Origin: Thermoleophilaceae bacterium
GTDB lineage: Bacteria > Actinomycetota > Thermoleophilia > Solirubrobacterales > Thermoleophilaceae
Assembly: GCA_050997195.1 (NCBI GenBank)
Contig: JBPCRE010000182.1
Coordinates: 1 to 37,628 of the forward strand
Reading direction: 5' to 3'
Length of the DNA: 37,628 nucleotides
Each line of letters opens with the position of its first letter. The stretch's first letter is position 1. The notes beneath the pieces were generated by a model. The model made no database searches, was not told the origin of the DNA, and was given only the letters and a program-made list of their open reading frames with translations. Below, piece by piece: positions 3,061 to 34,209 of the stretch. A program made the position numbers and the translations under genes.

Positions 3061-3101
3061 CCTTCGCGCCCTTCCCAAGGCTCGATCGACCGGGAGGTCG
3101 C

Positions 3102-17906: not shown

Positions 17907-18002
17907 AACTCGTTCTTCTTCGGCGCGTCGGGGCCAGAACTTGAGTCCTTTCCTCTGACCGGGCGCCGATACGCCTCCTGCCTGCCGCCGCACCCTCCTA
18001 TA

Positions 18003-18019
18003 ACGCCCGAGCCGGGCGT
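18003..18019 (-). terminator. Hairpin ACGCCCG-agc-CGGGCGT, 4 nt after the ygfZ stop and followed on the transcript by UUAUA; weak intrinsic-terminator candidate
   Basis: Read directly. The stem is 7 bp and the loop 3 nt. The T-tract is short. Confidence 0.35.
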
Positions 18020-18022
18020 CTG

Positions 18023-18958
18023 TCACGCAGTGGCGAGAGCGAAGGGAAGGCCGAGGATCTCGGCCGGTGTGCCCTCCTCGCCCACGGCGACCGCCGCGCC
18101 GGGGCCGGCCTCGCGACGCACGAGCGCGAGGGCGATCGGACCGAGGGCGGGGGAGACGCACGCCGACCCGATCTCGCCCACGCGCTTGCCGTCGAGATCG
18201 ATCGGATCCCCGGGCTCCGCCGGCGCCGAGAGTCGCAGCCCCCGCAGGTGGCGGTTGGGCTTTCCCTTGTAGAAGAGGCGCGCGACCGTCTCCTGGCCCA
18301 CGTAGCAGCCCTTCTCGAACGACACGGCGCGGTCGTTGATGCCCGCCTCCTGGGGGATGATGTCCTCGGTGAGCTCGCGCCCGTGGCGCGGGCGCCCGCT
18401 CTCGATGCGCAGGCACTCGGCCGTGGTCTCGGAGACCTCGGGCACGCCGAGGGCCTCCCGCACCCGCTGCGCATTGGCGGACGGGCACAGGACGTCCACC
18501 CCCAGATCGGTGGCCACGTAGAGGCCGTGCTCTCCTTCGACCCACCCGTGCTCGCGGTCCTCGGGGGCCACGTCGAGCGCCTCGCGCGCGCCCGGACCGA
18601 GCAGGGAGAGCAGCGCTCGATCCGCGGTCTCGTCCGCGAAGCGCACGTCCCGGCCGATGGAGTACATCTTCACCGTGCGGGCCAGCGTGGCGAGGCCACC
18701 GGCCTCGGTGTCCAGGCGCAGCCAGTCGGGGCCTCGGAGCACCCGGGCGTCGGCGCGGATCTTTCCCTTATGGGTGAGCAGGAGCGCGTAGCAGCCCTCG
18801 CCCGGCTCGAGCGCCTCCACGTCGTTGGTGAGCTGGCCCTGGAGGAACTCCGCGGCCTCTGCGCCCCTGAGCAGGAGCTTGCCGCGCTCGGAGCGATCGA
18901 GAAGCCCCACGCCCTCGGTGACCAGTGCGTATTCGGAGGCCGAGATCATGAGGGCCAC
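18023..18958 (-). CDS. ygfZ: Folate-binding YgfZ/GcvT-like protein (Fe-S cluster repair / tRNA-modification associated)
   Basis: Track ORF 18023..18958. It has the aminomethyltransferase-like fold pattern and the diagnostic KGCYVGQE motif (FEKGCYVGQETVARL). Confidence 0.85.
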   Translation of the reverse strand: MALMISASEYALVTEGVGLLDRSERGKLLLRGAEAAEFLQGQLTNDVEALEPGEGCYALLLTHKGKIRADARVLRGPDWLRLDTEAGGLATLARTVKMYSIGRDVRFADETADRALLSLLGPGAREALDVAPEDREHGWVEGEHGLYVATDLGVDVLCPSANAQRVREALGVPEVSETTAECLRIESGRPRHGRELTEDIIPQEAGINDRAVSFEKGCYVGQETVARLFYKGKPNRHLRGLRLSAPAEPGDPIDLDGKRVGEIGSACVSPALGPIALALVRREAGPGAAVAVGEEGTPAEILGLPFALATA

Positions 18959-18995: not shown

Positions 18996-19358
18996 GTGGC
19001 GCTCGCAGAGAACTTCCAGCAGATCGTCGACTCGCTCCCGCCCGACTGGACGCACCTCGCGCTCGACCTCAGGATCTTCGACGAGGAGCGCTACGTGGAG
19101 GCGGCGACGATGCTGGTGCAGGTCAACGCCCAGCCGTGGTCGCGGAGCGACTGGCACTGGCGCCTGCTCGTGGCCCACGAGTTCGGGCACGCCGCGGCGG
19201 CGCAGACCGTGCACGGCACCCTCGCCGTGCTCGACTCCTTGGGGCTCGAGGGCCAGATGGAGGTGCGCCAGGTGCGCTCCGGGCGTGCGGAGGTCGTGCA
19301 GATGTGGGGCCGGCCCGAGTCCGTGCGGCAGGAGTTCCGCGCGCGGCGCGCTCAGTAG
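18996..19358 (+). CDS. Hypothetical protein (120 aa) containing a HEFGH word
   Basis: Track ORF 18996..19358, with good GC3. Sequence MALAENFQQIVDSLPPDWTHLALDL...LLVAHEFGHAAAAQTVH. No family recognised. Confidence 0.5.
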   Translation: MALAENFQQIVDSLPPDWTHLALDLRIFDEERYVEAATMLVQVNAQPWSRSDWHWRLLVAHEFGHAAAAQTVHGTLAVLDSLGLEGQMEVRQVRSGRAEVVQMWGRPESVRQEFRARRAQ

Positions 19359-19367
19359 GGCCCCACC

Positions 19368-19730
19368 GTGGCGCGCGTGGCCGTCCTCTGCCCTGACCTG
19401 CTCTTCGGCTCGAAGGTCGAGGGCGGACTCACCGCCGCCGGGCACGAGGTCACCCGCTTCGACGACGAGGCGGGGCTCAGGGCCGCGGGAGCGGCATCGG
19501 AGGTGCTGGTGGTGGACCTCACCGCCGACGCCGCCGAGCGCGTCGCCATGGTCGAGGCCATGGACGCGGCAGGCGAGCTCGCCGGGCTCCGCACGCTCGG
19601 CTTCTACGCGCACGTGGACGTCGACGTCCGGCGCAGGGCCGAGGAGGCCGGCTTCGACCTCGTGGTGCCGCGCTCGCGGATGGCCCGCGAGATGGGAGCG
19701 CTGGTGGAGCGGCTGCTCTCCGACTCTTAG
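19368..19730 (+). CDS. Hypothetical protein (120 aa), flavodoxin/receiver-like alternation of hydrophobic strands
   Basis: Track ORF 19368..19730 (MARVAVLCPDLLFGSKV...VLVVDLT...). It starts 9 nt after the previous gene. No family recognised. Confidence 0.5.
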   Translation: MARVAVLCPDLLFGSKVEGGLTAAGHEVTRFDDEAGLRAAGAASEVLVVDLTADAAERVAMVEAMDAAGELAGLRTLGFYAHVDVDVRRRAEEAGFDLVVPRSRMAREMGALVERLLSDS

Positions 19731-20822: not shown

Positions 20823-21602
20823 ATGCCAGCAGCGTCCGCGGGCCTGAACGAGGAACTGCTCACCCTCCTCGAGGCCGTGCAGAGCGGCGCCGTCCCGCCC
20901 GCGAACGCGCTCGAGCGGCTGGCCGGGCTGCCCTTCCGGGACCTTGGCTTCGCCCGTCTCGACACCCACCGCGAGCTCCGGCAGGGAGCCCCCGAGGCCG
21001 TGCTCGCCGAGGGCAAGAGCCCCGACGAGATCTCGGGAATAGTGCGCGCCCTGCTCGAAGAGGACGCGGGCAGCATCCTCGTGACCCGGGCCGACGCCGA
21101 CGCTCGGGCCGCGGTGCGTCGCGCCGCCCCCGAGGCGGAGGAGGACGAACGCGGACGCCTCGCCTGGGTGCGCCGGCGCGTGCCCGTGGCGTGCGGGCGG
21201 GTGGCGATCGTCTCGGGCGGGACCTCGGACGGGCCGGCGGTCCGGGAGGCGGCCGTGCGGGCCGAGCTCCTCGGTGCGTCGCTCACCGTGCACGAGGACG
21301 CCGGCGTGGCCGGGATCCACCGGCTGGCCCCGACCCTCGAGGATCTTCGCGAGGCCGACTGCGTGGTGGTGGTGGCCGGCCAGGACGCGGCCCTTGCCTC
21401 GGTGGTGGGAGGCCTCGTCGCGGCGCCGGTGATCGCCGTGCCCACCAGCACGGGCTACGGCGCGGCCTTCGGCGGGGTGACCGCGCTGCTCGCCATGCTC
21501 AGCTCGTGCGCGGCCGGCGTGGCCGTGGTCAACATCGACGACGGCTTCGGGGCCGGCACCATCGCCGCGCGGATCGCTCGTGCGGCGGGAGGTGCGAGGT
21601 GA
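20823..21602 (+). CDS. larB: LarB, NPN-cofactor biosynthesis carboxylase/hydrolase (PurE-like)
   Basis: Track ORF 20784..21602, start at GTG 20784 or ATG 20823. Motifs: DLGFARLDTHRELRQGAPEAV, VAIVSGGTSDGPAVREAAV, VVVAGQDAALASVVGGLVAAPVIAVPTSTGYGA, CAAGVAVVNIDDGFGAG. Confidence 0.88.
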   Translation: MPAASAGLNEELLTLLEAVQSGAVPPANALERLAGLPFRDLGFARLDTHRELRQGAPEAVLAEGKSPDEISGIVRALLEEDAGSILVTRADADARAAVRRAAPEAEEDERGRLAWVRRRVPVACGRVAIVSGGTSDGPAVREAAVRAELLGASLTVHEDAGVAGIHRLAPTLEDLREADCVVVVAGQDAALASVVGGLVAAPVIAVPTSTGYGAAFGGVTALLAMLSSCAAGVAVVNIDDGFGAGTIAARIARAAGGAR

Positions 21603-22831
21603 GCTCCGACGGCGCGCGGGGCGACGCCCCCCTCCTCTACGTCGACTGCGTGGCCGGGGTGGCCGGAGACATGCTCCTGGGCGCCCTGATAGACGCGGGA
21701 GCGAGCGCCGACGGGGTACGGGCGGGCCTCGAGGGCCTCGGCGTCGCGGGGTTGACGCTTCGTGTGGAGCGCACCGAGCGCCACGCGATCGGTGCCGTCC
21801 GGGCCGAGGCGCGAGCCGAGGACCGCCAGCCCCATCGCCGCTTCGCCGAGGTGCGGGAGCTGCTGGCCGGCGCCGCCCTTCCGGAGCGCGTGCGCGCACG
21901 AGCCCACGCCACCTTCCGGCGCCTCGCGGAGGCCGAGGGGAGGGTCCACGGGATCTCTCCCGAGCGGGTGGACTTCCACGAGGTGGGAGCCGTGGACGCG
22001 ATCGCCGAGGTGTGCGGCGTGGCGCTCGCCCTCGAGGATCTCGGGGTGGAGCGGGTGGTGTGCTCGCCGCTGCCCGCACCTCGGGGCTTCGTGGGATCGG
22101 CGCACGGGCGGCTTCCGCTCCCCGCCCCGGCCACGCTCGAGATCCTGGTGGGCGCGCCGCTCCACGGGGTCGAGCTCGACGTCGAGCTCGTCACGCCCAC
22201 CGGCGCGGCGCTCGTGGCCTCGCTGGCCGAGGGCTACGGCCCGATGCCGCCGCTGCGCATGGGCGCGATCGGGTACGGCGCGGGGTCCCGCGAGCTCGAG
22301 GCGCTGCCCAACGTGGTCCGCGTGATCCTCGGCGAGCCGCTCGGCTCCACCACCGAGGAGGGTCGCGTCTCGCTCGTGGAGACCAACCTCGACGACCTCC
22401 TTCCGGAGCACGTTCCCGACGCGGCGGACGCCTGCTTCGCCGCCGGGGCCCTCGACGTGTGGAGCGCTCCAGCGCAGATGAAGAAGGGGCGCCCGGGAAC
22501 GGTGCTCTCCGCCCTCGTTCGCCCCGCCCGGGAGTGGGCGGTGGCCGAGGCCATGATGCGCGAGACGGGGAGCCTCGGCGTGCGGGTGGCCGAGCTCAGG
22601 CGCCACGAGCTCGAGCGTCACTGGCGCACGGTGGACGTGGGAGGCCACAGCGTCCGCGTGAAGGTCGGGCGCCTCGGGGGCGCCGAGACGAGCGTGGCAC
22701 CCGAGCACGACGACTGCGTCCGCGTGGCGCAGGCCACGGGCGCCAGCGTGCGCTCGGTGTGGGCTGCGGCGCTCGCGGCGGCCCAGTCCGCCCACGTGCC
22801 CGGCTCGCCGGAGGAGGCCCTCCGTGCCTGA
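21599..22831 (+). CDS. larC: LarC, nickel-insertion (cyclometallase) protein, single uninterrupted ORF
   Basis: Part of track ORF 20780..22831. GTG 21599 overlaps the larB TGA. Motifs: LYVDCVAGVAGDMLLGALIDAG, VDFHEVGAVDAI, PVTPTGAAL-like block, MKKGRPG. Confidence 0.9.
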   Translation: MSSDGARGDAPLLYVDCVAGVAGDMLLGALIDAGASADGVRAGLEGLGVAGLTLRVERTERHAIGAVRAEARAEDRQPHRRFAEVRELLAGAALPERVRARAHATFRRLAEAEGRVHGISPERVDFHEVGAVDAIAEVCGVALALEDLGVERVVCSPLPAPRGFVGSAHGRLPLPAPATLEILVGAPLHGVELDVELVTPTGAALVASLAEGYGPMPPLRMGAIGYGAGSRELEALPNVVRVILGEPLGSTTEEGRVSLVETNLDDLLPEHVPDAADACFAAGALDVWSAPAQMKKGRPGTVLSALVRPAREWAVAEAMMRETGSLGVRVAELRRHELERHWRTVDVGGHSVRVKVGRLGGAETSVAPEHDDCVRVAQATGASVRSVWAAALAAAQSAHVPGSPEEALRA

Positions 22832-23672
22832 GCTCGACGCCCGCCGCGCGGCCATCGAGGAGCGCCTCAGCGGCCTCGGCGGTGCGGTGGTGGCCTTCTC
22901 GGGCGGCGTGGACTCCTCACTGGTGGCCGCGCTCGCCGTCCGGGCGCTCGGGTCGCGAGCGCTGGCCGTGACCGCCGTGTCTCCCGCGCTCGCCTCCGGT
23001 GAGCTCGAAGGGGCGCGGGAGGTGGCTCGGGCGGTGGGCATCGCGCACGAGTCCGTGTCCACCGAGGAGCTGGCGCGCGAGGCCTACCGCCGCAACGGGC
23101 CTGACCGCTGCTACCACTGCAAGACCGAGCTCTACGACGTGCTGGCCGCCCTCGGGGCGACGCGCGGATACCCCGCGCTGCTCTCGGGAGCCAACGCCGA
23201 CGACGCGGGGGACTGGCGCCCCGGCCTGCGGGCGGCGGCGGAGCGGGGGGTGATCCACCCGCTGCTCGAGCAGGGCCTCGGCAAGACGGAGGTGCGCGAG
23301 CTGGCTCGGCGTCTGGCGCTGCCGAGCGCGGCCAAGGCCGCGAGCCCCTGCCTCGCCTCGAGGATCCCCTACGGCACGCCGGTTGACCCCGGCACCCTCG
23401 AGCGCATCGACCGCGCGGAGCGGGGCGTGCGGGCGCTCGGGTTCGGCGTGCTCAGGGTCCGCCACCACGGAGCCCTCGGGCGCGTGGAGCTCGGGGCCGA
23501 GGAGCTCGCGCGCGGACTCGAGCCTCGCGTCCGCGCGGCCATCGTCGAGGCGGTGCGCGCGGGCGGCTACGCGGAGGCGGAGGTGGCCGAGCGGCCCTTC
23601 CGCTCGGGCTCGTTGAACGACGCGCTCACCCGGTCGGGTGCGGGTCGAGCGCCCGGCGCAGCAGCGCGATGA
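22824..23672 (+). CDS. larE: LarE, ATP-dependent sulfur-insertion protein (PP-loop ATP pyrophosphatase)
   Basis: GTG 22824 overlaps the larC end by 8 nt. PP-loop VAFSGGVDSS, CYHCK, and SPCLASRIPYG (equivalent to the L. plantarum sulfur-donor Cys). Confidence 0.9.
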   Translation: MPELDARRAAIEERLSGLGGAVVAFSGGVDSSLVAALAVRALGSRALAVTAVSPALASGELEGAREVARAVGIAHESVSTEELAREAYRRNGPDRCYHCKTELYDVLAALGATRGYPALLSGANADDAGDWRPGLRAAAERGVIHPLLEQGLGKTEVRELARRLALPSAAKAASPCLASRIPYGTPVDPGTLERIDRAERGVRALGFGVLRVRHHGALGRVELGAEELARGLEPRVRAAIVEAVRAGGYAEAEVAERPFRSGSLNDALTRSGAGRAPGAAAR

Positions 23673-24273
23673 GCGCGTCGCGGTGGCGGGCCACGGCCTC
23701 CGGCGACAGCGGATCCTCAGCCGTAAGCTCCCGGCGGAAGCGGGCGTCCGAGAAGTAGGTGAGCACCGTGCCGTAGCAGAGCTGCATGACCTCCAGCGGA
23801 TCGTGCGGGCGCAGCCGGCCGGCCGCGGTCTCGCGCTCGAGGAACGCCACCGCGCGCTCGAGGAAGGGGCGCAGGAACTCGGCGATGGCGTCGGCGAGGC
23901 GCCCCCCGCCCTCGATGGCCTCGCGGCGAACGATGCGCACGAAGTCCTCGTGGTGCTCGAAGAAGGAGAACGCCATCTCGATCAGGCGCGCCACCTGGTC
24001 GAAGCCGTCGAGCTTGTTCTCGATGGCTCCGTGGATCTCACCCGCCCAATCGGCCACCGCGGTCTCGATGACCGCGGCGTAGAGCCCTTCCTTGGACGAG
24101 AAGTAGTAGAGCAGCGTGGGGTGGCGCAGTCCGGCTCGCTCGGCGATGTCCTGGAGGCGCGCGCCGTCGAAGCCGCGGTTCGCGAACTCGGCGCGGGCCT
24201 CGATCAGGAGGCGCTGCCGGGAGCTGGCCTCGGGTGCGACGCCAGGGTCCTCGGGGGTTACGGCTCCCTCCAT
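23626..24273 (-). CDS. TetR-family transcriptional regulator
   Basis: C-terminal 215 codons of track ORF 23626..25461, from ATG 24273. HTH: RLLIEARAEFANRGFDGARLQDIAERAGLRHPTLLYYFSSKEGLY. Its 3' end overlaps the larE 3' end by 47 nt (convergent). Confidence 0.9.
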   Translation of the reverse strand: MEGAVTPEDPGVAPEASSRQRLLIEARAEFANRGFDGARLQDIAERAGLRHPTLLYYFSSKEGLYAAVIETAVADWAGEIHGAIENKLDGFDQVARLIEMAFSFFEHHEDFVRIVRREAIEGGGRLADAIAEFLRPFLERAVAFLERETAAGRLRPHDPLEVMQLCYGTVLTYFSDARFRRELTAEDPLSPEAVARHRDALIALLRRALDPHPTG

Positions 24274-24304
24274 GTCGCCGCAGCCTACGGAAGATCGCCG
24301 CTCG

Positions 24305-24318
24305 ACTGACACGTCAGT
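24305..24318. promoter_or_regulatory. Palindrome ACTGA-CACG-TCAGT between the divergent TetR gene and the reductase operon; candidate TetR operator
   Basis: Read directly. It lies in the 60-nt spacer between the ATG at 24273 (-) and the GTG at 24334 (+). It is the same motif as at 1080-1093. Confidence 0.5.
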
Positions 24319-24333
24319 AGAGATTGGGCTAGG

Positions 24334-26655
24334 GTGCTCGCGCGGCCGATGGGGGAGGAGCGGGTACAGCGGATAGCGGAGCTCCTCGAGGACAGGAGGC
24401 TGTTGCTCACGGGCGCCTCGGGCTTCGTGGGCAAGGGCGTGCTCTCCGCCTGCCTCGGGGCCGTGCCGGGGCTCCGCGAGATCCGCCTGCTGCTGCGCGC
24501 CACCGACGACGCCGACGCTCTGCGCCGCCTGCGCGAGGAGATCCTGCCGCAGACCCCCTTCTCCACCGGCGAAGCCGCCGACCTCGACGCCGCCATCGCC
24601 GGGGGCCGGCTGAGCGCCGTGGCGGCCGACCTGGCCGTGGACGGGTTCGGTCGAGCGACGCCGCTCGATCTCTCCGACGTCGACGTGGTGGTGCACTGCG
24701 CGGCCTCGGTGTCCTTCGAGGATCCGCTCGACCGCATGATCGAGCTGAACGCCCTGGGCGCCGGTCGGCTCGTGGACGCACTGCGGGCGAGCGGCTCGGA
24801 GCCCACCTTCGTCCACGTCTCGACGGCCTACGCGGCCGGCGAGCGCACGGGCCTCGTGCTCGAGCGCCCGTCCGGCAACACGCCGGCCGAGCCGGCGGTG
24901 GACCTCCGCGCCGAGCTCGAGGCGGCCCGCGCCTGGCGAAGCGATCTCGAGGCCGAGTCGCGGCTGCCCGCCCACCAGCACCGTTTCGTGCGCGACGCCC
25001 GAGAGGAGATCGGCCCGGCCGGGGCGCCCGCGGTGGGCGCTCGCGCCGAGGAGGCGCGGCGCGCGTGGGTGCAGACCGAGCTGCGCGAGCGCGGACGCGA
25101 GCGCTGCCGCGCCCTCGGATGGTCCGACGCGTACTCGTTCTCCAAGGCCCTGGGCGAGCGCGTGGTGGTCGAGCGCGGACTCGAGCGGCTCACCATCGTG
25201 CGGCCGAGCGTGATCGAGTCGGCGCTTCGCCACCCCCACGCCGGCTGGCTCGAGGGACTCAAGGTGGCCGATCCGGTGATCCTCGCCTACGGGCGCGGGC
25301 TGTTGCCGCGCTTCCCCGGCAACGGCTCGGTGCGCTTCGACATCGTGCCCGTGGACCTCGTGGCCAACGCCTGCATCGCCGCGGCGGCGCACCCGCCGAG
25401 CACGAGCCCCTGCGTCGTGAACGTGGCGAGCGGCAGCCGCCGCCCGCTCACGCTCGGGCACGCGGTGGAGATGATCGCCGACTACTTCCGCGAGCGCCCC
25501 TTCCCGGACGACGACGGTGTGGCCGTGGACATCAAGGCGCTTCCCCTCATCCCGTTCTCACGCGCCACCCGGGCCATCGACCGTGGCGAGCGCGCCGTTC
25601 GCCTCGGCCGGCGGATCGTGGGCCGCGTGCCGGTTCCGAACGCCGACGCGGTCGAGCGGCGGCTGCACCGCGAGCGCCGCTCGCTCGAGCGCCTGCGCCG
25701 GCTCTCGGAGCTCTACGCGCCCTACGGCGAGCTCGACTGCGTGTTCGACGACCGCCACGCCACCGAGCTCGAGGCACGCCTGCACCCCGAGGACCGCGCG
25801 CGCTTTTCCTTCGACGTGGCCGACATCGACTGGGAGGAGTACTTCAAGGACATCCACCTCCCGGCCCTGCGCGCGCTCGTCGGGGTGCCGCGCGTGGGCG
25901 TGCGCCCGGTCGCGCCCGAACGGGACGCTCGCCCGGCGCCCATCGAGGACGGTCCTCCGGGGCTTGCCTTCTTCGACGTGGAGGGCGTGCTGCTCGACAC
26001 CACGGTGGCCCACTTCTACGCGTGGCTTCGCACCCGCGACATGCCCCGGGGCGACCGCGCCCTGTGGTCGCTCGGCCTGGCCGCCCGGGCGCCGGGATAC
26101 CTCGTGGCCGACCGCCGCTCGCGCTCGGCCTTCAACCGCCGCTTCTACCGCAACTACCGTGGCCTGCCGGCCGCCGAGCTGCGCGAGCAGGCCGAGGAGG
26201 CGCTGTCGGAGTTCATCCTCCCGCGCGTGCACCAGGAGGCCGTGCGGCGCATCCGCGCGCACCGCCGCCGCGGCGATCGGGTGGTGCTGATGACCGGTGC
26301 CCTCGACTTCCTCGTCGCCCCCCTGCGCTTCCTGGCCGACGACCTCGTGGCGGCGCGCCTCACCGAGCGGCGCGGGGCCTTCACCGGGGAGCTGGCCGAG
26401 CCGCCGCTCACCGCCGACGGCCGCGCCTCGCTGGCCGCGCGGATGGCGGCCGAGCACGGCGCCGAGCTCGGCCAATGCCACGCCTCCGGCGACTCCTCAT
26501 CGGACCTGCCCATGCTCGAGCTCGTCGGCCATCCCCACGCGGTGAACCCCGACTTTCGCCTGAGCCGCGAGGCCCGGCGCCGGCGCTGGCCCATCCTCGA
26601 GTGGGACACCGAGCCGGGCGCCCGTACGAGGCCGCGCGTGGGGGCGGGCGCGTAG
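24334..26655 (+). CDS. Fusion protein: fatty-acyl-CoA/ACP reductase-type SDR (NAD_binding_4 / male-sterility domain) + HAD-IB family hydrolase
   Basis: Track ORF 24334..26655 (alternative ATG at 24349). N-terminal part: LLLTGASGFVGKGVL, VVVHCAASVSF, HVSTAYAAG, YSFSKALGE, IVRPSVI. C-terminal part: LAFFDVEGVLLDTT, VVLMTGALDF, HASGDSSSDLPML, AVNPD. Confidence 0.85.
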   Translation: MLARPMGEERVQRIAELLEDRRLLLTGASGFVGKGVLSACLGAVPGLREIRLLLRATDDADALRRLREEILPQTPFSTGEAADLDAAIAGGRLSAVAADLAVDGFGRATPLDLSDVDVVVHCAASVSFEDPLDRMIELNALGAGRLVDALRASGSEPTFVHVSTAYAAGERTGLVLERPSGNTPAEPAVDLRAELEAARAWRSDLEAESRLPAHQHRFVRDAREEIGPAGAPAVGARAEEARRAWVQTELRERGRERCRALGWSDAYSFSKALGERVVVERGLERLTIVRPSVIESALRHPHAGWLEGLKVADPVILAYGRGLLPRFPGNGSVRFDIVPVDLVANACIAAAAHPPSTSPCVVNVASGSRRPLTLGHAVEMIADYFRERPFPDDDGVAVDIKALPLIPFSRATRAIDRGERAVRLGRRIVGRVPVPNADAVERRLHRERRSLERLRRLSELYAPYGELDCVFDDRHATELEARLHPEDRARFSFDVADIDWEEYFKDIHLPALRALVGVPRVGVRPVAPERDARPAPIEDGPPGLAFFDVEGVLLDTTVAHFYAWLRTRDMPRGDRALWSLGLAARAPGYLVADRRSRSAFNRRFYRNYRGLPAAELREQAEEALSEFILPRVHQEAVRRIRAHRRRGDRVVLMTGALDFLVAPLRFLADDLVAARLTERRGAFTGELAEPPLTADGRASLAARMAAEHGAELGQCHASGDSSSDLPMLELVGHPHAVNPDFRLSREARRRRWPILEWDTEPGARTRPRVGAGA

Positions 26656-26657
26656 TC

Positions 26658-27812
26658 GTGCTCGGCCTCGAGTACTCGCCCTCGCCGGTGCGCCACACCG
26701 CGGCGCGGGTGTCCCGGCGTGCGGGAACGAGTGCGCTGCGCCTGCGCGAGGACCTCCGCCCGCCGCGGCTCCCGGCGCCCGAGTGGCTCTCGGTGCGGCC
26801 GCGCCTCTCGGGCATCTGCGGCTCCGACCAGGCGCTCGTGACCGGCGAGGCTTCGCCCTACCTCGCCGCGCTCACCTCCGGGCCGTTCGTGCCGGGTCAC
26901 GAGGTGGTGGGTGAGGTGGCCTCGGGCTCCCGCCGCGGGCAGCGCGTGGTGGTGGAGCCGGCGCTCGGGTGCGAGGCGCGCGGCATCCGCCCACCCTGTC
27001 CCGAGTGCCTCGAGGGCCTCCACGCCCTGTGCCGGAACGTGACGGCGGGATCGGTGTCGGCGGGCCTGCAGATCGGCTTCTGTCGCGACACCTGCGGGGG
27101 GTGGAGCGAGGGGCTCACCGCTCACGCCTCCCAGCTCCACGCCGTGCCCGATTCGCTCTCCGACGAGGACGCCGTGCTCGTCGAGCCGCTGGCCTGCGCG
27201 CTGCACGCCGCGCAGCGTGCGGCGCCACAGCCCGGCGAGGTGCTCGCCGTGATCGGGGCGGGCACCATGGGCCTGCTCGCGGTGGCCGCCCTGCGCGATC
27301 TCGCTCCGGAGGCCACCGTGGTGGCGCTCGCCAAGCACCCCGGCCAGGAGCTCGAGGCCCGCCGCCTGGGAGCCGACCACACCGCTCGCTCGGGGCGGCT
27401 GCACCTCGAGGGGGCACGACTCACCGGGGCGCGTCGACTGGTGGGCCACCTCGGTCGCGAGCTGCTGCTCGGCGGCTTCGACGCCGTGCTCGACTGCGTG
27501 GGCTCGGGCGCGTCGCTCGAGAGCGCGATCACCGCGGTGCGCCCGCGCGGGCGGGTCGTGCTCGTGGGCATGCCCGGCAGCGTGAGCGCCGACCTGGCGC
27601 TGGCGTGGCAGCGCGAGGTCGAGATCAAGGGCGCCTACGGCTACGCGCGGGACTTCCCCACCGCCCTCGAGCTGGCCGGGCGCATCCGCCCCGGTCGCCT
27701 GGTGGCGCGCGGCTGGCACCTGCGCGAGTACCGCGAAGCGCTCGCGGACGCTCCGCGGGCGGCGCGATCGGGGCGCGTGAAGACCGTGTTCGACCTGCGG
27801 AGCGAGACGTGA
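26658..27812 (+). CDS. Zinc-dependent medium-chain alcohol/polyol dehydrogenase (MDR family)
   Basis: Last 384 codons of track ORF 25065..27812. GTG 26658 lies 2 nt after the upstream stop. Motifs: GICGSDQ, GHEVVGEV, the structural-Zn cysteines CEARGIRPPCPECLEGLHALC, and VIGAGTMGLLAV. Confidence 0.85.
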   Translation: MLGLEYSPSPVRHTAARVSRRAGTSALRLREDLRPPRLPAPEWLSVRPRLSGICGSDQALVTGEASPYLAALTSGPFVPGHEVVGEVASGSRRGQRVVVEPALGCEARGIRPPCPECLEGLHALCRNVTAGSVSAGLQIGFCRDTCGGWSEGLTAHASQLHAVPDSLSDEDAVLVEPLACALHAAQRAAPQPGEVLAVIGAGTMGLLAVAALRDLAPEATVVALAKHPGQELEARRLGADHTARSGRLHLEGARLTGARRLVGHLGRELLLGGFDAVLDCVGSGASLESAITAVRPRGRVVLVGMPGSVSADLALAWQREVEIKGAYGYARDFPTALELAGRIRPGRLVARGWHLREYREALADAPRAARSGRVKTVFDLRSET

Positions 27813-29473
27813 GCGTGGTCGGACGTCTGCGAGCCTCCGCGCCGCCGGCGGTCGAGCGGCCGCCCGGTGGACGCTCGCGGCGCGTCCCGCCCGCCGTCGA
27901 GCGCGAGGCCTCGGTGGTCGAGGTCACCGACGTCTCGCCGCCCACCCTCTTTCACTCCGGCGATTCCATGCGCCTCGAGCGCCTGCCGGTGGGCTCGCGC
28001 ATCGTCTACCCCCCGCCGCCCCTGAAGGGCCTCGCCGACCTGGATGCGGCCATCGCCGCGGCGCTCGACGCGCCGCTCGGCATGGACCCCCTCGACGCGC
28101 TGCTCCGGCCCGGGATGCGCCTCACCATCGCCTTCGACGACATCTCGGTGCCGCTCCCGCCCATGCGTTCCCCGGACGTGCGCCAGCTCGTGATCGAGCA
28201 GGTGCTCGAGCGCGCCTACCGCGCCGGAGTGGACGACATCCACCTCATCGCGGCGCTCGCCCTGCACCGGCGGATGACCGGGGCGGAGCTGCGCGAGACC
28301 GTCGGCGCGCGGGTGTTCGACGCCTTCTACCCGGACCGCCTCTACAACCACGACGCCGAGGATCCGGGTGGGAACACCCCGATGGGCGAGACCGACGCGG
28401 GCGAGGTCGTGACGCTGAACCGCCGTGCGGCCGAGTCGGACCTCCTCGTCTACGTCCACCTCGTGACCGCCACCCTGCAGGGCGGGCCGAAGTCGGCGGC
28501 CATCGGTCTCGGCACCTACGGATCCATCTCGGCCCATCACAACGTGCACACGCTGCGCCACTCGCGCTCCTTCACCGACCCGCCCAACAGCGCCCTGCAC
28601 GCATCCTCGAACCGCCAGGGCGAGGTGATCGAGTCCGCCGTGCCCGTCTTCCACGTGGAGACCACCGTGAACAACGACATGTTCGCCGGGCCGCTGCGGT
28701 TCCTGGCCAGGCCCGAGCAGCGCTGGAGCGCTCGCGAGCAGGCCACGTTCGCCGGGATGAAGCGATTCCTCGACCGGGCTCCGGTGCGGATGCGGCGCAC
28801 GATGTTCCAGCGCCAGCGTGCTCCCTTCGAAGCGATCGGCGTGGCCGCAGGGGCGATCGAGCCCGTGCACGAGGCCATCCACGCCCGGGCATCGGAGCAG
28901 CAGGGGGTGCTGGTCGAGGGTCAGTCCGACATCGTGACCGCGGGGCTTCCCTACATCGGGCCCTACAACGTGAACTCGATCAACAACCCGGTGCTCGTCA
29001 TGTGCCTCGGGCTCGGGTACTTCTTCAACATGTACCGGGGCAAGCCGCTGGTGCGCCCCGGCGGGGTGATGATCTTCACCCATCCGGTGGAGCGCGAGTT
29101 CCACCCCGTCCACCACCCCTCCTACATCGACTTCTACGAGGAGGTGCTGGCCGAGACCACCGACCCCGTGGAGATCGAGCGCCGCTTCGAGCGCTCCTAC
29201 GCCGAGGACGAGTGGTACCGCCACCTCTACCGCACCAGCCACGCCTACCACGGCGTGCACCCCTTCTACATGTGGTACTGGGGCGCGCATGCGCTCGAGC
29301 ACGTGGGGGAGACCATCTTCGTGGGCGGAGATCCGGAGGCCTGCCGGCGCATGGGCTTCCGCCGGGCCGACACCATGCGCGACGCGCTCGAGATGGCCGA
29401 GCACGTGGTGGGGCGCTCACCATCGCTCACCCACTTCCACTGCCCGCCCATCTTCTACGCCGAGGTCACGTGA
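27809..29473 (+). CDS. Divergent LarA-family (lactate racemase-like, NPN-dependent) protein of unknown substrate
   Basis: Part of track ORF 26969..29473. GTG 27809 overlaps the upstream TGA; alternatives are GTG 27815 and ATG 27968. By eye it aligns with L. plantarum LarA: LTIAFDDISVPLP versus IVIISSDHTRPVP; LIAALALHRR versus LVATGFHRP; VHLVTATLQGGPKSAAIGLGTYGSISAHH versus [29 protein letters not shown]. Confidence 0.78.
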   Translation: MSVVGRLRASAPPAVERPPGGRSRRVPPAVEREASVVEVTDVSPPTLFHSGDSMRLERLPVGSRIVYPPPPLKGLADLDAAIAAALDAPLGMDPLDALLRPGMRLTIAFDDISVPLPPMRSPDVRQLVIEQVLERAYRAGVDDIHLIAALALHRRMTGAELRETVGARVFDAFYPDRLYNHDAEDPGGNTPMGETDAGEVVTLNRRAAESDLLVYVHLVTATLQGGPKSAAIGLGTYGSISAHHNVHTLRHSRSFTDPPNSALHASSNRQGEVIESAVPVFHVETTVNNDMFAGPLRFLARPEQRWSAREQATFAGMKRFLDRAPVRMRRTMFQRQRAPFEAIGVAAGAIEPVHEAIHARASEQQGVLVEGQSDIVTAGLPYIGPYNVNSINNPVLVMCLGLGYFFNMYRGKPLVRPGGVMIFTHPVEREFHPVHHPSYIDFYEEVLAETTDPVEIERRFERSYAEDEWYRHLYRTSHAYHGVHPFYMWYWGAHALEHVGETIFVGGDPEACRRMGFRRADTMRDALEMAEHVVGRSPSLTHFHCPPIFYAEVT

Positions 29474-29493
29474 GGTTCGCCCGGGGAGGGCGC

Positions 29494-30276
29494 ATGCTCG
29501 AGCGCCTGGCCGGCACCCCCGCACCGCGCCGGCGCCGGCCGTCGGGGCGGTGGCGCACGGTGCGTTCCGGACCGGACCCCTGGTCGGCCTCGGCCCCCCA
29601 GACGCCCGACCAGGCGTGGCTGCGCGGCCGCGCTCCCTCGCTGGCCCGCGACCTGCTCCAGGAGGGGCTGCTGTTTCCCGCCACCCGCTTCGTGGCCCAT
29701 CCGCGGGTCGAGGGAGCGGAGGACCTCGCCCACGCCCCGCAGCCGGCGGTGATTGCCCCCAACCACGGCTCGGACATCGACACGCCGCTCGTGCTCGGCG
29801 CCCTTCCCCGGGCCTGGCGATCGCGCACGGTCGTCGGGGCGGCGGCCGATCGCTTCTACCGCCGGCGCTCCTACGCGGTGATGAGCGGACTCTGGATCAA
29901 CACCTTCCCCTTCGATCGCTCGGGCGAAGGTCGCGGGGCCGCGGCGGCGGCCGAGTTCCTGCGCGAGGGCCACAACGTCCTCCTCTACCCGCAGGGCACA
30001 CGGTCCGCCGGCCAGCTCCAGGGCTTTCGCTCGGGCGTGGCCCGGCTCTGCGTGGCCACCGGCGCGCCGCTCGTGCCCGTGCACGTGGGCGGCACCTCGC
30101 TCATCATGCCCAAGGACCGCGGGCTCACGCGACGGGGCCGGGCCACGGTGCGCTTCGGAGCGCCGCTCATCCCCTTCGCGGGGGAGCGGCCGGAGGACTT
30201 CCTGGAGCGCACGCGCGAGGCCCTCGCGGCGCTGGCGCCTCGGAGCGCTCACGGGCGAGCGCGAATCGCGACCTGA
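29494..30276 (+). CDS. 1-acyl-sn-glycerol-3-phosphate acyltransferase-like (PlsC/LPLAT)
   Basis: Part of track ORF 29002..30276. ATG 29494 lies 4 nt after GGAGG; the alternative GTG 29470 overlaps the LarA-like TGA. HX4D block VIAPNHGSDIDTP, and LLYPQGTRS, ATGAPLVPVHV. Confidence 0.85.
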   Translation: MLERLAGTPAPRRRRPSGRWRTVRSGPDPWSASAPQTPDQAWLRGRAPSLARDLLQEGLLFPATRFVAHPRVEGAEDLAHAPQPAVIAPNHGSDIDTPLVLGALPRAWRSRTVVGAAADRFYRRRSYAVMSGLWINTFPFDRSGEGRGAAAAAEFLREGHNVLLYPQGTRSAGQLQGFRSGVARLCVATGAPLVPVHVGGTSLIMPKDRGLTRRGRATVRFGAPLIPFAGERPEDFLERTREALAALAPRSAHGRARIAT

Positions 30277-31220
30277 TGGGGCCCCTCGCCGCCTCCGCTA
30301 CCGTCGGTTCCATGCCCACGCTAATCATTCGTGAGTACACCGACCCCGGCTGCCCATGGGCGTTCTCGGCCGAGCCCTCCCGCTACCGGCTGCGCTGGCT
30401 GTTCGGAGAGGAGATCGCGTGGCACCGCACCATGGTCGGCCTCTCCGAGCGCCCGGAGGACGTGGCCGCTCGGGGCTTCACACCGGACCGTGAGGCCAAG
30501 GCTCTGGCCGCCATGCAGCGCCGCTTCGGGATGCCCATCGATCCGCTCGAGCGTCCGCGCAACGCCGCGACCATGCCGGCCTGCCGGGCCGTGGTGGCAG
30601 CTCGCCTGCACGCTCCGGAGCGGGAGGTTGCCCTCCTGCGCCGCCTACGAGTCAACGCGATGGCGGGCAACCTGCTCGACGCGCCGGAGACCCTCGCCCT
30701 CTCCGCCGGCGAGGCCGGGCTCGATCCCCTCGAGCTCGAACGCTGGGCCGGGGAGGCGGAGACCGCCGAGGCTCTCAGCGCCGACATGGCCGCCGCACGC
30801 GCGCCTTCTCCGGCGGCTCTCGCCCTCGACCACAAGCTGGCCGACGCGGCCGGCGGGCGCCGCTACACGTGCCCGAGCTACGAGATCGCCCGAGCCGACG
30901 GCCCGGCCCGCCTCGATCTCCCCGGCTTTCAGCCCGCGGACGCCTACGAGGCGGCCATCGCCAACCTCGCGCCCGAGCTCGTGCGCCGGGGAAGGCCCGA
31001 GAGCGTCGAGGAGGTGCTCGCCTGGGCCGGAGAGCCGCTGGCCACCGCCGAGGTGGCGGCCGTTCGCGAGACGACCATGATCGAGACGCGCGAGGCCCTG
31101 GCCCGAGTCGCCCGGGAGCGCCCGGTAGGCGCCGACGGGTACTGGACGCTCCCGGGTGCCGCCACCGACGAGGCCCTCGGGGTGGCGGAGCCCGCCCAGC
31201 TTCGCGCTCCGCTCGCCTGA
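30276..31220 (+). CDS. DsbA-like thioredoxin-fold protein with a single-Cys CPWA active-site motif
   Basis: Part of track ORF 29289..31220. ATG 30276 overlaps the upstream TGA by 1 nt; the alternative is ATG 30312 (MPTLIIREYTDPGCPWAFSAEP). Confidence 0.65.
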   Translation: MGPLAASATVGSMPTLIIREYTDPGCPWAFSAEPSRYRLRWLFGEEIAWHRTMVGLSERPEDVAARGFTPDREAKALAAMQRRFGMPIDPLERPRNAATMPACRAVVAARLHAPEREVALLRRLRVNAMAGNLLDAPETLALSAGEAGLDPLELERWAGEAETAEALSADMAAARAPSPAALALDHKLADAAGGRRYTCPSYEIARADGPARLDLPGFQPADAYEAAIANLAPELVRRGRPESVEEVLAWAGEPLATAEVAAVRETTMIETREALARVARERPVGADGYWTLPGAATDEALGVAEPAQLRAPLA

Positions 31221-31248: not shown

Positions 31249-33426
31249 GTGCGGCGGATCACCTTCTCGCGCAACTACACGCTGTCGCTGTCGCGCACCT
31301 GTCGCTGCTTCTGCAAGTACTGCGCCTTCGCCACGCACCGGGCGCACCTCTACTCACCGGACGAGGTGGAGCGCATGCTCGAAGAGGCCGTGCGCCGGAA
31401 CGCCAAGGAGCTCCTCGTGCTCACCGGCGAGCATCCGGAGGTCAACGCCGAGGTCCGGGCGCGCCTCGAGGAGTACGGCCACGCCGACTTCACCTCCTAC
31501 GTGGCCTGGGCCTGCGAGCGCGCGCTCGAGCGCGGCATGCTCCCGCACACCAACATCGGTGTGCTCGAGCGCCGTGACCTGGCCCGCCTGCGCGAGGTCA
31601 CCGCGTCCCAGGGCCTGATGCTCGAGTCGATCTCCGAGCGGCTGATGGACACCGTGCACGCCGGCTCGCCCACCAAGCACCCGGCGAGGCGGCTCGCCAC
31701 CATCCGTGCCGCCGGGGAGCTGAAGATCCCCTTCACGAGCGGCATCCTCGTGGGCGTGGGGGAGACCCGCGAGGAGCGCTTCGCCTCCCTGGCGGCGCTC
31801 GCCGAGGTCCACGCCGAGCACAACCACCTCCAGGAGGTGATCCTCCAGAGCTACGTGCCCCACCGCAGCTACTACGGCGAGGAGCCGGCGGAGATCGCCG
31901 ACGCGGCCCAGCGCGGCGGGGGTGCGGGCGAGGCGGCCGACGCGCCGGCCTGGGCCACCCCGGTCTCGCTCGAGGACATGGCCGAGCTCGTGCGCGAGTG
32001 CCGCCGGCTCATGCCCGACGTGGGCGTGCAGATCCCGCCCAATCTCTCGGACTGGTGGCTTCCCCTCGTCGAGGAGGGCGCCACCGACCTCGGAGGGCTC
32101 TCGGCCAACGGCGACCACATCTCGCCCGAGCACCCCTTCCCCTCGCCCCACCGCATGCGGGGGGCGCTCGCGCCGCGGGGCTACGCGCTCACCGAGCGCC
32201 TCTGCGTCTACCCCCAGTTCATGGACGCCGAGTGGCTCGAGCCGGGCGTGCTCGACGTGATCAAGGCGCGCTTCTGGTCCTTCATCCCGCGGCGGGGGTC
32301 GGGTCGCCGGGAGGACCGCGCGATCCGCCGCGAGCTCGTACCCGGGGCGGTGGCCCGTGCTCGCGAGGGCGTCGAGCTCTCCGAGGACGAGCTCACAGCG
32401 CTGTTCGCGGAGCGCCGCCCCGAGGCCATCGAGGACATGCGCCAGGCCGCCGACGAGCTGCGCGAGGAGCTCGCCGGAGACACCGTGACCTTCGTGGTCA
32501 ACCGCAACATCAACGTGTCGAACGTGTGCGTGGTGGGCTGCGCGTTCTGCGGCTTCGGGCAGGGAAAGCGCTCTCCCGACGCCTACGAGCACGACCGCGA
32601 GGAGTTCGTGCGCCGCGTCGAAGAGGCGGTGGAGGTCGGGGCCACGGAGATCTGCATCCAGTCGGGCATCCACCCGGACTGGGCGCTCGAGGACTACGAG
32701 GGCTGGCTGCGCCTGGCCCTGGAGACCGCTCCGGACATCCACCTGCACGCCTACTCGGCCATGGAGGTCGACCGCATGTGCGAGGTCTCGGGGCTCTCAC
32801 CCGAGCGGGTCTTCGCCCGGCTGCGCGACGCCGGGCTGGGCTCCACCCCGGGCACGGCCGCCGAGGTGCTCCACGACGGCGTGCGCCAGCGCATCTCGCC
32901 CAACAAGCTGCCCGTGCGCCGATGGGTCGAGATCATCGAGGCCTCTCACCGCGCCGGGCTCCGCTCCACGGCCACCGTGATGTTCGGCCACGTGGAGGAG
33001 CCCTGGGAGCTCGCCGAGCACATGCGCGTGGTGCGGGCGCTGCAGGAGCGCACGGGTGGCATCACCGAGTTCGTTCCGCTGTCGTTCGTGCCCTTCCACA
33101 CCATGCTCGGGCGCACCCACGGCATCGAGGAGATCTCCCGCGAGGAGAACCTCAAGCACACCGCCACGTTCCGGCTCGCGCTCGGCCGGACGGTTCTCAG
33201 CCTGCAGGCGAGCTGGGTGAAGATAGGCCTCGACGCCGCCACCGAGGCGCTCCGCTGGGGCGTGAACGACCTGGGGGGGACGCTCATGGAGGAGTCGATC
33301 TCCCGCATGGCGGGCGCCTCCCACGGCACGATGCTCACCCCGGAGGACCTGATCGGCGCCGCCGAGGCCGCGGGCCGACCGGCGGCGCAACGCGACACGC
33401 TGTACCGGGTGCTCCAGACGTACTGA
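31249..33426 (+). CDS. fbiC: FO synthase (7,8-didemethyl-8-hydroxy-5-deazariboflavin synthase), fused CofG/CofH
   Basis: Track ORF 31249..33426. It has two radical-SAM CxxxCxxC motifs (CRCFCKYC and CVVGCAFC) and the length and order of the fused enzyme. Confidence 0.95.
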   Translation: MRRITFSRNYTLSLSRTCRCFCKYCAFATHRAHLYSPDEVERMLEEAVRRNAKELLVLTGEHPEVNAEVRARLEEYGHADFTSYVAWACERALERGMLPHTNIGVLERRDLARLREVTASQGLMLESISERLMDTVHAGSPTKHPARRLATIRAAGELKIPFTSGILVGVGETREERFASLAALAEVHAEHNHLQEVILQSYVPHRSYYGEEPAEIADAAQRGGGAGEAADAPAWATPVSLEDMAELVRECRRLMPDVGVQIPPNLSDWWLPLVEEGATDLGGLSANGDHISPEHPFPSPHRMRGALAPRGYALTERLCVYPQFMDAEWLEPGVLDVIKARFWSFIPRRGSGRREDRAIRRELVPGAVARAREGVELSEDELTALFAERRPEAIEDMRQAADELREELAGDTVTFVVNRNINVSNVCVVGCAFCGFGQGKRSPDAYEHDREEFVRRVEEAVEVGATEICIQSGIHPDWALEDYEGWLRLALETAPDIHLHAYSAMEVDRMCEVSGLSPERVFARLRDAGLGSTPGTAAEVLHDGVRQRISPNKLPVRRWVEIIEASHRAGLRSTATVMFGHVEEPWELAEHMRVVRALQERTGGITEFVPLSFVPFHTMLGRTHGIEEISREENLKHTATFRLALGRTVLSLQASWVKIGLDAATEALRWGVNDLGGTLMEESISRMAGASHGTMLTPEDLIGAAEAAGRPAAQRDTLYRVLQTY

Positions 33427-33459
33427 GGTACCGGGGCCGCACGCCTTCAGCACCTCAGC

Positions 33460-34209
33460 TCAGAGAAACAGGTCCTCCTCCGGTGCTCGCCGGAGCGCGT
33501 CCGCGCCCCGCCCGTCCTCGACGCTCACGTAGCGACCGAGGCCGCGCACGAGCACGGCGGGCTCGGCGGAGTCCTTGGCCCGGGCGAGGTCGGCGGCGGC
33601 CGCGGCGGCGTCGGCCACCGCGATCACCGTGGCCCCGAGCGCTCGGCCCCGAGCGTCCGCGCGCCCGCGCCAGTCGTCCAAGGGGGTGAGTCCGGCCACG
33701 CCGATGGCCACGTCGACCTGGCCGAGTCGCCAGACCCGCCCGAACGAGTCGGTGAGGAGCACCGCGGGGCGCACGCCGCGCAGGGCGGCGATGCTCCGGC
33801 GCAGGGCGCGGGCCGAGGCGTCGGGATCCTCGGGGAGGAGGATCACCTGCTCGGGCCGAGCCGCGTTCGAGGCGTCGACGCCCGCGTTGGCGCACACCAT
33901 GCCGTGGTGGGTGCGCGACACGATCACCCCCCGCTCGGCGCGCAGCACCTCGGCCGACTCGTCGAGCACGACCTGCACCATGCGGGGATCCTTGCCGTGG
34001 GGCTCGGCGAGCTCCCTCGCCCGGGCCGTGGGCTTCACGGCCGCGAGCGCGCGCACGCGGCCCTCGCTCTTCGACACCACCTTGTGGGCCACGACGAGGA
34101 GGTCTCCGTCGCCGAGGTCGCGCGGCGCGGCGTGGGCGAGGAGCGCCCCGAGATCGTCGCACTCGCTCACCTCCGGCAGGCCCTCGAGCGCGAGAACCTC
34201 GATGCGCAG
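33460..34209 (-). CDS. cofE: F420-0:gamma-glutamyl ligase, single-domain CofE type; start codon non-canonical or unresolved
   Basis: Track ORF 33460..34170 (GTG) extended upstream. The frame stays open and encodes LRIEVLALEGLPEV, the conserved CofE N-terminal strand. The only candidate starts are CTG 34209 and ATC 34203. Motifs: VVAHKVVSKSEGR, VCANAGVDASN, LLTDSFGR. Confidence 0.82.
   Translation of the reverse strand: MRIEVLALEGLPEVSECDDLGALLAHAAPRDLGDGDLLVVAHKVVSKSEGRVRALAAVKPTARARELAEPHGKDPRMVQVVLDESAEVLRAERGVIVSRTHHGMVCANAGVDASNAARPEQVILLPEDPDASARALRRSIAALRGVRPAVLLTDSFGRVWRLGQVDVAIGVAGLTPLDDWRGRADARGRALGATVIAVADAAAAAADLARAKDSAEPAVLVRGLGRYVSVEDGRGADALRRAPEEDLFL

Follow-up and report, generated by a model that had tools for sequence, protein, structure and literature searches.

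A probable elb-type lipid operon with a LarA homologue and adjoining nickel-pincer cofactor genes in a Thermoleophilaceae bacterium

The window analysed here is a stretch of 37,628 nucleotides (37.6 kb, ~73% GC) from a Thermoleophilaceae bacterium (contig JBPCRE010000182.1), in which an operon with a homologue of the lactate racemase LarA (LarAH) among lipid-building enzymes lies next to larB, larC and larE, the maturation genes of the cofactor nickel-pincer nucleotide (NPN). Sequence comparison identifies LarAH with ElbC of the elb ether-lipid operon of Myxococcus xanthus; this identification is new here, as we found no paper that states the match. The first-pass annotation of this DNA, made from the sequence alone, had placed the operon in a lipid pathway, and this context has been strengthened, with LarAH as the ElbC orthologue and partner domains that match ElbB and ElbD. 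On balance, we take the operon (24334-30276) for an elb-type lipid module in which one step borrows a hydride and depends on NPN, and we class it among the elb-type clusters as a new form that is actinobacterial and linked to larBCE.

Two fields meet in this operon. LarA homologues of groups 14-16 occur in at least 598 species-representative genomes, yet they have no substrate and an active site that is incompatible with a normal racemase. In lipid research, the elb operon is credited with most Myxococcus ether lipids, with ether-bond formation unexplained and ElbC listed as "unknown", while elbD is in use as an environmental marker for producers of bacterial ether lipids and branched glycerol dialkyl glycerol tetraethers. 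Seeing ElbC as a nickel-pincer-type enzyme provides a concrete, testable hypothesis that joins both fields.

Gene content and conservation of the operon

All genes named by the first-pass annotation were recovered at their positions, and a frame plot of the GC content at third codon positions (GC3) backs the reading frame of each. The cofactor genes and the operon comprise the following features:

20823-21602, plus strand: larB, nicotinic acid adenine dinucleotide (NaAD) carboxylase/hydrolase of nickel-pincer cofactor synthesis (NF033503, 246 bits, cut-off 175; AIRC domain)
21599-22831, plus strand: larC, nickel-inserting cyclometallase with fused LarC1 and LarC2 (PF01969, E 1e-128; TIGR00299, 200 bits; NF052512, 129 bits)
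22824-23672, plus strand: larE, ATP-dependent sulfur transferase (TIGR00268, 290 bits, cut-off 150)
24334-25908, plus strand: SDR domain of the fatty acyl-CoA/acyl carrier protein reductase (FAR) type, part of a fusion protein encoded at 24334-26655 (NAD_binding_4, E 4e-44, and Sterile)
25939-26655, plus strand: HAD-IB phosphatase domain of the same fusion protein (PF12710, E 3e-26; TIGR01490, 109 bits)
26658-27812, plus strand: Zn-dependent MDR dehydrogenase of the polyol/ketose-reductase type (ADH_N and ADH_zinc_N)
27809-29473, plus strand: LarAH, LarA homologue of the LarAH14/15/16 family (Lar_N, PF09861, E 2e-32; NF052592, 829.5 bits, cut-off 740)
29470 (or 29494)-30276, plus strand: PlsC/AGPAT-type acyltransferase (PF01553, E 7.5e-13; HX4D motif NHGSDID)
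30276-31220, plus strand: thioredoxin-fold-like open reading frame (ORF), "DsbA-like" (Pfam DSBA, E 0.0099, below cut-off)

The operon genes are tightly packed, with a gap of 2 nt between FAR-HAD and MDR, GTGA junctions on both sides of LarAH (MDR/LarAH and LarAH/PlsC) and a TGATG junction, that is a 1-nt overlap, between PlsC and the DsbA-like gene. Scans of 19.5-34.5 kb for sigma-70 promoters (no promoter-like sites) and for intrinsic terminators (one match inside plsC, below shuffle expectation) are uninformative in DNA of 73% GC. Profile searches bore out four of the five domain calls of the first-pass annotation, namely FAR-HAD, MDR, the LarA homologue and PlsC, and left the DsbA-like call below threshold. 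The closest solved structure to the FAR domain, which carries the motifs TGASGFVGK and YSFSK, is the fatty acyl-CoA reductase 7EOZ (E 4e-59, residues 14-516), that to the acyltransferase is the PlsC structure 5KYM (E 5e-11), and the MDR protein is closest to ketose reductase 1E3J, followed by sorbitol, xylitol and idonate dehydrogenases. Motifs I and IV of the HAD domain are conserved across the aligned homologues. Within motif I (window 25960-25975), the window and Acidimicrobiia have Glu two residues past the nucleophile Asp (FDVEG, FDLEN), where ElbB and some Actinomycetes have Asp (FDVDG, FDLDG); as the general acid/base of a HAD phosphatase, Glu is unusual.

To follow the operon across genomes, one genome per species was scanned, which gave at least 598 genomes with a relative. 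The best 80 loci were kept; they come from Thermoleophilia, Acidimicrobiia, several Actinomycetes and Dormibacterota, reach down to 56% LarAH identity and were searched with the window proteins, with counts limited to loci with enough flank. The order FAR-HAD, optional MDR, LarAH, PlsC is conserved: a HAD domain lies upstream of the LarAH gene in 72/72 loci and a FAR in 66/66 (fused to the HAD in 65 of these), PlsC follows directly downstream in 74/74, and the MDR gene is present in 52/78. The FAR-HAD/LarAH/PlsC arrangement is far beyond chance, so the synteny proposed by the first-pass annotation holds for these partners, with the MDR gene as an optional member. In many Acidimicrobiia (L008-L076) the module occupies a fixed chromosomal place, with ddl and a Mur ligase gene ~4-7 kb upstream of the LarAH gene, which points more to vertical inheritance over a long time than to a recent transfer.

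Several candidate additions to the module were discarded. Other recurrent flanking genes (D-Ala-D-Ala ligase, Mur ligase, aconitase, amidase, carboxyltransferase and LysR) reflect lineage synteny of Acidimicrobiia. Two apparent fusions, P0063 (MDR with LarAH) and P0107 (LarAH with PlsC), might have served as Rosetta-stone evidence, but garbled low-complexity stretches replace their conserved termini and they are therefore frameshift or gene-calling artefacts. The DsbA-like gene, which the first-pass annotation had counted in the operon, is also rejected as a pathway member: the ORF has no NCBIfam or PDB match, and a homologue lies beside the module in none of the 80 actinobacterial loci and in 0/167 related loci once the 87 elb-type loci described below are included. 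This orphan, situated between plsC and fbiC, has CPWA in place of a CxxC motif and hence a single Cys; it is probably co-transcribed here.

The conserved synteny in itself is not new, because it was tabulated in the supplement of Desguin et al. 2020 (PMC7583248), and a curated NCBI model exists for LarAH14/15/16; on this point the first-pass interpretation is weakened. That study grouped 354 LarA homologues and tabulated their neighbours. Its group 14, with members from Frankia, Kribbella, Ilumatobacter and Acidimicrobium, is listed in Table S1 with COG0204, COG0560 and COG1063 at 88% each and COG3320 at 50%; for group 15 the listed neighbours are COG0451, COG0560 (100%) and COG1022 (75%), and for group 16 COG0204 and COG0560 at 100% each. 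The window protein is a member of this family (groups 14-16, NF052592), shares the neighbours COG0204, COG0560, COG1063 and COG3320 and shows no essential difference from it. Groups 14 and 15 carry the label "unknown function" in the study's tables, and its sequence table places MXAN_1529 of M. xanthus in group 15. The word "lipid" is absent from the main texts of the LarAH-group papers, in which group 15 is not tied to elb or to lipids, and in our literature search no paper on nickel-pincer cofactors or LarA made a connection to ether lipids, plasmalogens, elbC or fatty acyl-CoA reductase.

The M. xanthus elb operon (MIBiG BGC0000871) consists of elbA (SDR), elbB (HAD phosphohydrolase), elbC ("unknown function"), elbD (FAR1-like, acyl-CoA synthetase (ACS), acyl carrier protein (ACP) and AGPAT domains) and elbE (SDR) (PMC9131029). 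Since elbA to elbE correspond to MXAN_1531 to MXAN_1527 (PMC13012113) and elbD to MXAN_1528 (PMC11980068), ElbC is MXAN_1529. In the M. xanthus locus (L081) we found the order SDR, HAD, Lar_N, NAD_binding_4-Sterile-AMP-binding-PP-binding-Acyltransferase, SDR, and the ElbC protein (P0121) is a Lar_N protein of 536 aa. Pairwise comparison gave 48% identity between LarAH and ElbC over 524 aa (E 0), and 49% without gaps to the published 388-aa ElbC fragment. The window HAD domain is 39% identical to ElbB along the full length (221 aa, E 1e-44), the FAR domain 30% to ElbD residues 8-543 (541 aa, E 9e-46) and PlsC 34% to ElbD residues 1266-1388 (124 aa, E 3e-14). Used as queries in the 80 actinobacterial loci, the M. 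xanthus sequences matched in 76 loci for ElbB, 80 for ElbC, 71 for FAR and 68 for the acyltransferase, compared with 1 for ACS, none for ACP and 6 and 5 for the ElbA- and ElbE-type SDRs.

Thus, both operons pack a LarA homologue, a HAD phosphatase, a FAR-type reductase and an AGPAT-type acyltransferase on one strand. In the window, the FAR is fused to the HAD rather than to the acyltransferase, a Zn MDR gene without an elb counterpart is inserted, a divergent TetR gene is present and larBCE adjoin. That two distant phyla cluster the same four domain families, fused in differing ways, is strong evidence that these families work together. The first-pass annotation had already pointed to the shared reductase and acyltransferase logic of the elb genes, which stands, although it drew the link as mere analogy and missed that elb has its own LarA homologue. 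We also surveyed 87 elb-type loci, and scanning metagenomes with group-15 sequences contributed 80 loci. Among those with enough upstream flank, nearly all have ElbB and ElbC side by side, with ElbD-ElbE next in most, and no unit of the elb-type system is tighter than the pair of HAD and LarA homologue. Eleven loci (L090, L096, L097, L101, L103, L106, L112, L116 and L122-L124) have the ElbB-ElbC pair with no ElbD-ElbE following within the sequence at hand.

The LarA homologue and the nickel-pincer cofactor

LarAH covers positions 2-519 of the 520 positions of NF052592 and shows the signature of group 14 (D, hydrophobic residue, H, gap, gap, ..., K, H). An alignment to LarA of Lactobacillus plantarum (LarA-Lp) pairs D111 with D72, H153 with H108, K228 with K184 and H244 with H200. 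These LarA-Lp residues are the cofactor tether (Lys184), a Ni ligand (His200), a ribose-binding residue (Asp72) and a catalytic residue (His108). All four are invariant in 21 group-14/15 sequences of 46-76% identity, as are Y386, H425, H436, Y470, H472, R475, H481 and H484, so that the cofactor Lys and His, on which the first-pass annotation had staked its proposal, are indeed conserved.

The residues that serve hydroxy acids in LarA-Lp are lost. The second catalytic His (H174), together with F175 and F176, falls in a 4-residue deletion of LarAH, and the carboxylate binder R75 is replaced by V114. For group 14, the published table gives a gap at Q295 and Asn at K298 (PMC7583248), and groups 14 and 15 have no His174 equivalent according to Table S3 of that study and to Gatreddi et al. 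2025 (PMC12611868). With neither the second catalytic His nor the Arg and Lys that bind the carboxylate, LarAH is unlikely to be a plain hydroxy-acid racemase.

The AlphaFold2 model of LarAH (pLDDT 85.6, pTM 0.86) adopts the two-domain LarA fold, and all 19 significant fold matches in the PDB are LarA-family proteins. LarA of L. plantarum (5HUQ) shares the fold, the cofactor-binding residues and adjoining maturation genes with LarAH, which differs from it in having only 16% identity in the fold alignment, ~120 additional residues, no lactate context and none of H174, R75, Q295 and K298. The best fold match is LarASp (9q3k, TM 0.73/0.84), and LarASp and LarABw are closest by sequence too (E 2e-29). 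These single-histidine proteins of group 17 (PDB 9Q2U/9Q3K and 9Q3J) likewise lack the second catalytic His and the lactate-type substrate residues, and H484 and Y386 of LarAH align with His401 and Tyr307 of LarASp, which contact its ligand. However, group 17 has Asn at the His174 position, Lys at the Arg75 position and a glycolytic or sugar gene context, whereas the LarAH family has a deletion, a hydrophobic residue and a lipid gene context. LarASp and LarABw hold a phosphorylated ligand and lie among triose- and sugar-phosphate genes; a phosphorylated, non-carboxylate substrate of LarAH would therefore fit its nearest structural relatives.

Profile searches confirmed LarB, LarC and LarE, each above its cut-off at the equivalog level, and hence the complete NPN maturation set that the first-pass annotation had recognised. 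The larB/larC junction is GTGA, with an overlap of 4 nt, and larC and larE overlap by 8 nt. LarE contains the motifs SGGVDS and CYHC...SPC; the CXXC-C cysteine pattern is that of the [4Fe-4S] type (PMC9283937). Based on SGGVDS and the CXXC...C cysteines, LarE belongs to the catalytic [4Fe-4S]-dependent type and not to the sacrificial single-Cys type of L. plantarum. Within the 37.6-kb window, the gene at 27809-29473 is the sole LarA-like gene, and the claim that it encodes the only candidate NPN client holds for the window only; NPN enzymes of the aldo-keto-reductase type are also known (PMC13524815).

A proposed hydride-borrowing step and its alternatives

In the pathway that we propose, FAR would reduce a fatty acyl thioester to an aldehyde or alcohol, and LarAH, loaded with NPN made by the adjoining larB-larC-larE products, would take a hydride from a lipid-backbone alcohol, for which the sn-2 hydroxyl of an acyl- or alkyl-glycerol-phosphate is the most plausible candidate, or from a fatty alcohol. 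The transient carbonyl would permit a pathway-specific step, after which the hydride would be given back. The PlsC-type enzyme would acylate a glycerol-phosphate-type intermediate, the HAD-IB domain would strip the phosphate, and the optional MDR (ElbE in Myxococcus) would reduce a keto intermediate at the level of dihydroxyacetone phosphate. The position of larBCE next to the lipid operon argues that the NPN cofactor is really used there; the chemistry of the LarAH step is what we infer.

The pathway-specific step could be an acyl-to-alkyl exchange, that is ether formation, in which case LarAH would stand in place of alkyl-DHAP synthase (AGPS) and its reductase. In M. xanthus, the formation of most alkyl and vinyl ether lipids depends genetically on elbD, and a second operon, MXAN_1676 to MXAN_1674, provides a minor route with AGPS, a FAR-acyltransferase fusion and an SDR (PMC9131029). 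The AGPS route, represented by this operon and by eukaryotic FAR1/GNPAT/AGPS/PexRAP, resembles the window in its FAR, PlsC-family acyltransferase, C2 keto-reductase and later phosphatase step; unlike it, the window has no AGPS-type flavoenzyme among the Pfam calls for all ORFs. FAR, acyltransferase and SDR are common to both M. xanthus operons and what remains is AGPS in one and HAD plus LarAH in the other, which is why we propose LarAH for the pathway-specific step. That LarAH (ElbC, LarAH14/15) is the missing ether-bond-forming enzyme of an AGPS-independent aerobic bacterial pathway, acting by borrowed-hydride chemistry, is a tentative and rather speculative extension of the elb-type reading. 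If it is true, LarAH would be the first lipid-acting NPN enzyme and the first of the LarA fold with a reaction other than that of a racemase, and nickel would be needed for membrane-lipid synthesis in many Actinomycetota and Myxococcota.

Several observations weigh against an elb-type module with an NPN-dependent step. The ACS and ACP domains of ElbD and the ElbA/ElbE-type SDRs have no match in the window operon, which has the Zn MDR instead. With 204 bits to the Marinobacter-type FAR (7EOZ) and 161 bits to the FAR domain of ElbD, the window FAR stands nearer to the former. Only HAD and LarAH are clearly orthologous to elb parts, and FAR and the acyltransferase match at the family level. ElbD homologues are no guarantee of ether lipids, as Pontiella has them and makes none; from the literature we obtained no record of ether lipids for either Thermoleophilia or Acidimicrobiia, no lipid product for module-bearing actinobacteria and no description of an elbC single mutant. 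To our knowledge, NPN loading has been demonstrated for no group 14/15 protein, and the proposed hydride borrowing is without precedent in the LarA family. Finally, larBCE are rarely close to the module: they lie within 10 kb of it in 3/80 other actinobacterial loci (L007, L057 and L071) and in the surroundings of 0/87 elb-type loci. The adjacency described by the first-pass annotation is therefore a feature of the window that its relatives mostly do not share. At L057 (4951-7731, Thermomonospora) and L071 (10900-13713, Actinomadura), larC, two successive larB-like matches and larE sit right behind plsC on the opposite strand, and larB is either duplicated or split there.

The first alternative makes LarAH a true epimerase or racemase with no part in ether formation, which would invert a secondary alcohol in a lipid precursor; acting at C2 of glycerol-3-phosphate or lysophosphatidic acid, for example, it would produce a backbone of opposite stereochemistry. 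All characterised LarA enzymes invert a stereocentre through hydride transfer, the HAD and PlsC partners indicate a glycerol-phosphate-type substrate, and five histidines (H425, H436, H472, H481 and H484) are invariant; a replacement second base is conceivable because H484 aligns with the ligand-contacting His401 of LarASp. Nevertheless, with the His174 equivalent in the deletion the enzyme has a single His and would be at best one-directional, and no inverted-backbone lipid is known from the carrier organisms. We consider such an epimerase unlikely, and the NPN-dependent stereo-inversion suggested by the first-pass annotation has become doubtful with the loss of H174 and the change of R75 to Val.

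Somewhat less likely again is a module that makes or remodels a non-ether lipid, such as a wax-ester-like neutral lipid, a monoacylglycerol or a polyol- or sugar-phosphate lipid, with LarAH isomerising a polyol or sugar-phosphate head group. The polyol/ketose-reductase type of the MDR, the carbohydrate contexts of the nearest structural relatives of LarAH, the three PF01553 acyltransferases and the beta-oxidation genes of the window, and the ElbD homologues that do not always mean ether lipids would all suit it. However, elb, the sole experimentally studied cluster of such gene content, makes ether lipids, the MDR is dispensable in one third of the genomes, and the flanks of the 80 loci hold no conserved sugar-handling gene beside the module.

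It is improbable that LarAH is not an NPN enzyme here but a scaffold, a regulator or a protein with another cofactor, with larBCE present by chance or for another client. Counting the window, larBCE are adjacent in only 4/81 actinobacterial cases and in none of the 87 elb-type loci, non-LarA clients of NPN exist, and the Myxococcus protein is labelled "transcriptional regulator" in some databases. Against this, the 21 aligned sequences retain without exception the Lys tether, the His that binds Ni, the Asp that binds ribose and one catalytic His, the module has larBCE next to it in independent lineages (the window and L007 in Thermoleophilia, L057 in Thermomonospora, L071 in Actinomadura), and a Pfam search found no DNA-binding domain in LarAH.

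Least of all do we expect an ordinary soluble 2-hydroxy-acid racemase or epimerase with functionally unrelated neighbours: the NCBIfam name "hydroxyacid isomerase" and the assigned activities of the superfamily, all on 2-hydroxy acids, would favour it, but the linkage is 100% to FAR-HAD and PlsC in two classes and extends to ElbB/ElbD in another phylum, R75, Q295, K298 and the catalytic H174 are gone, and purified Frankia LarAH14 with NPN is recorded as inactive in the seven racemase/epimerase assays listed in PMC7583248 (lactate, 2-hydroxyisovalerate, 2-hydroxyisocaproate, malate, 2-hydroxyglutarate, phenyllactate and gluconate/mannonate). We infer that LarAH is not a racemase of soluble 2-hydroxy acids. 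Should the elb-type reading with its NPN-dependent step prove true, nickel supply would be limiting for the production of a membrane or storage lipid, the gene for LarAH would be a better marker of the pathway than elbD, and NPN chemistry would extend past 2-hydroxy-acid inversion.

Regulator, putative operator and remaining genes of the window

Between the cofactor genes and the operon lie two further features:

23626-24273, minus strand: TetR-family regulator (TetR_N and TetR_C_29), overlapping the 3' end of larE
24305-24318: palindrome ACTGAC-AC-GTCAGT, a probable TetR operator, within the 60-bp divergent region between the TetR gene and the operon

The first-pass annotation called the TetR gene convergent, which is right with respect to larE, whereas relative to the lipid operon the gene is divergent. 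A divergent TetR homologue is present in 40/63 related loci with enough flank. The same palindrome, (TC)TACTGAC-NN-GTCAGTA(GA), occurs in the Thermoleophilia loci L002-L007, and most Acidimicrobiia loci have the variant TCTACCA-NN-TGGTAGA at the same place in the TetR/FAR intergenic region. The window thus has both marks of a TetR-regulated divergent operon, a divergent helix-turn-helix gene of the TetR family and a palindrome in the common region, and a palindrome that keeps its position and changes with the class is the pattern expected of a co-evolving, probable TetR operator.

The remaining annotated features of the window are:

1077-5064: beta-oxidation genes (acyl-CoA dehydrogenase, PadR regulator, 3-hydroxyacyl-CoA dehydrogenase, 3HCDH-C/enoyl-CoA hydratase protein)
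12127-13119: SDR, with a 4-nt overlap with the following acyltransferase
13116-14123: second PF01553 acyltransferase
14755-15861, minus strand: third PF01553 acyltransferase, adjoining the SDR and acyltransferase pair
15864-18161, minus strand: long ORF of ~765 aa or more, with coding-type GC3 and no Pfam match
from 28 nt past the DsbA-like gene, plus strand: fbiC (two radical-SAM halves and CofH_C), start of the F420 biosynthesis cluster 31249-36665
within 31249-36665, after fbiC, minus strand: cofE, cofC, cofD and F420-dependent NADP oxidoreductase

A tie between the F420 cluster and the LarA homologue through 2-phospho-lactate was considered and rejected, as F420 genes lie beside the module in no related locus. 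Two 120-aa ORFs at 18996-19730 have no family match, and the idea that they are paralogues was dropped on comparison. The SDR and acyltransferase pair, 11 kb upstream of the operon, is homologous to a pair lying upstream of, and close to, the elb cluster of a Myxococcota metagenome-assembled genome (acyltransferase 44% over 220 aa, SDR 33% over 305 aa), and may, from this similarity, represent further members of the same lipid pathway. The homologous acyltransferase and SDR pair is found at L085 (3058-4842), L086 and L087 (3586-4491). With three PlsC-family genes within 37 kb, the window as a whole is rich in lipid genes.

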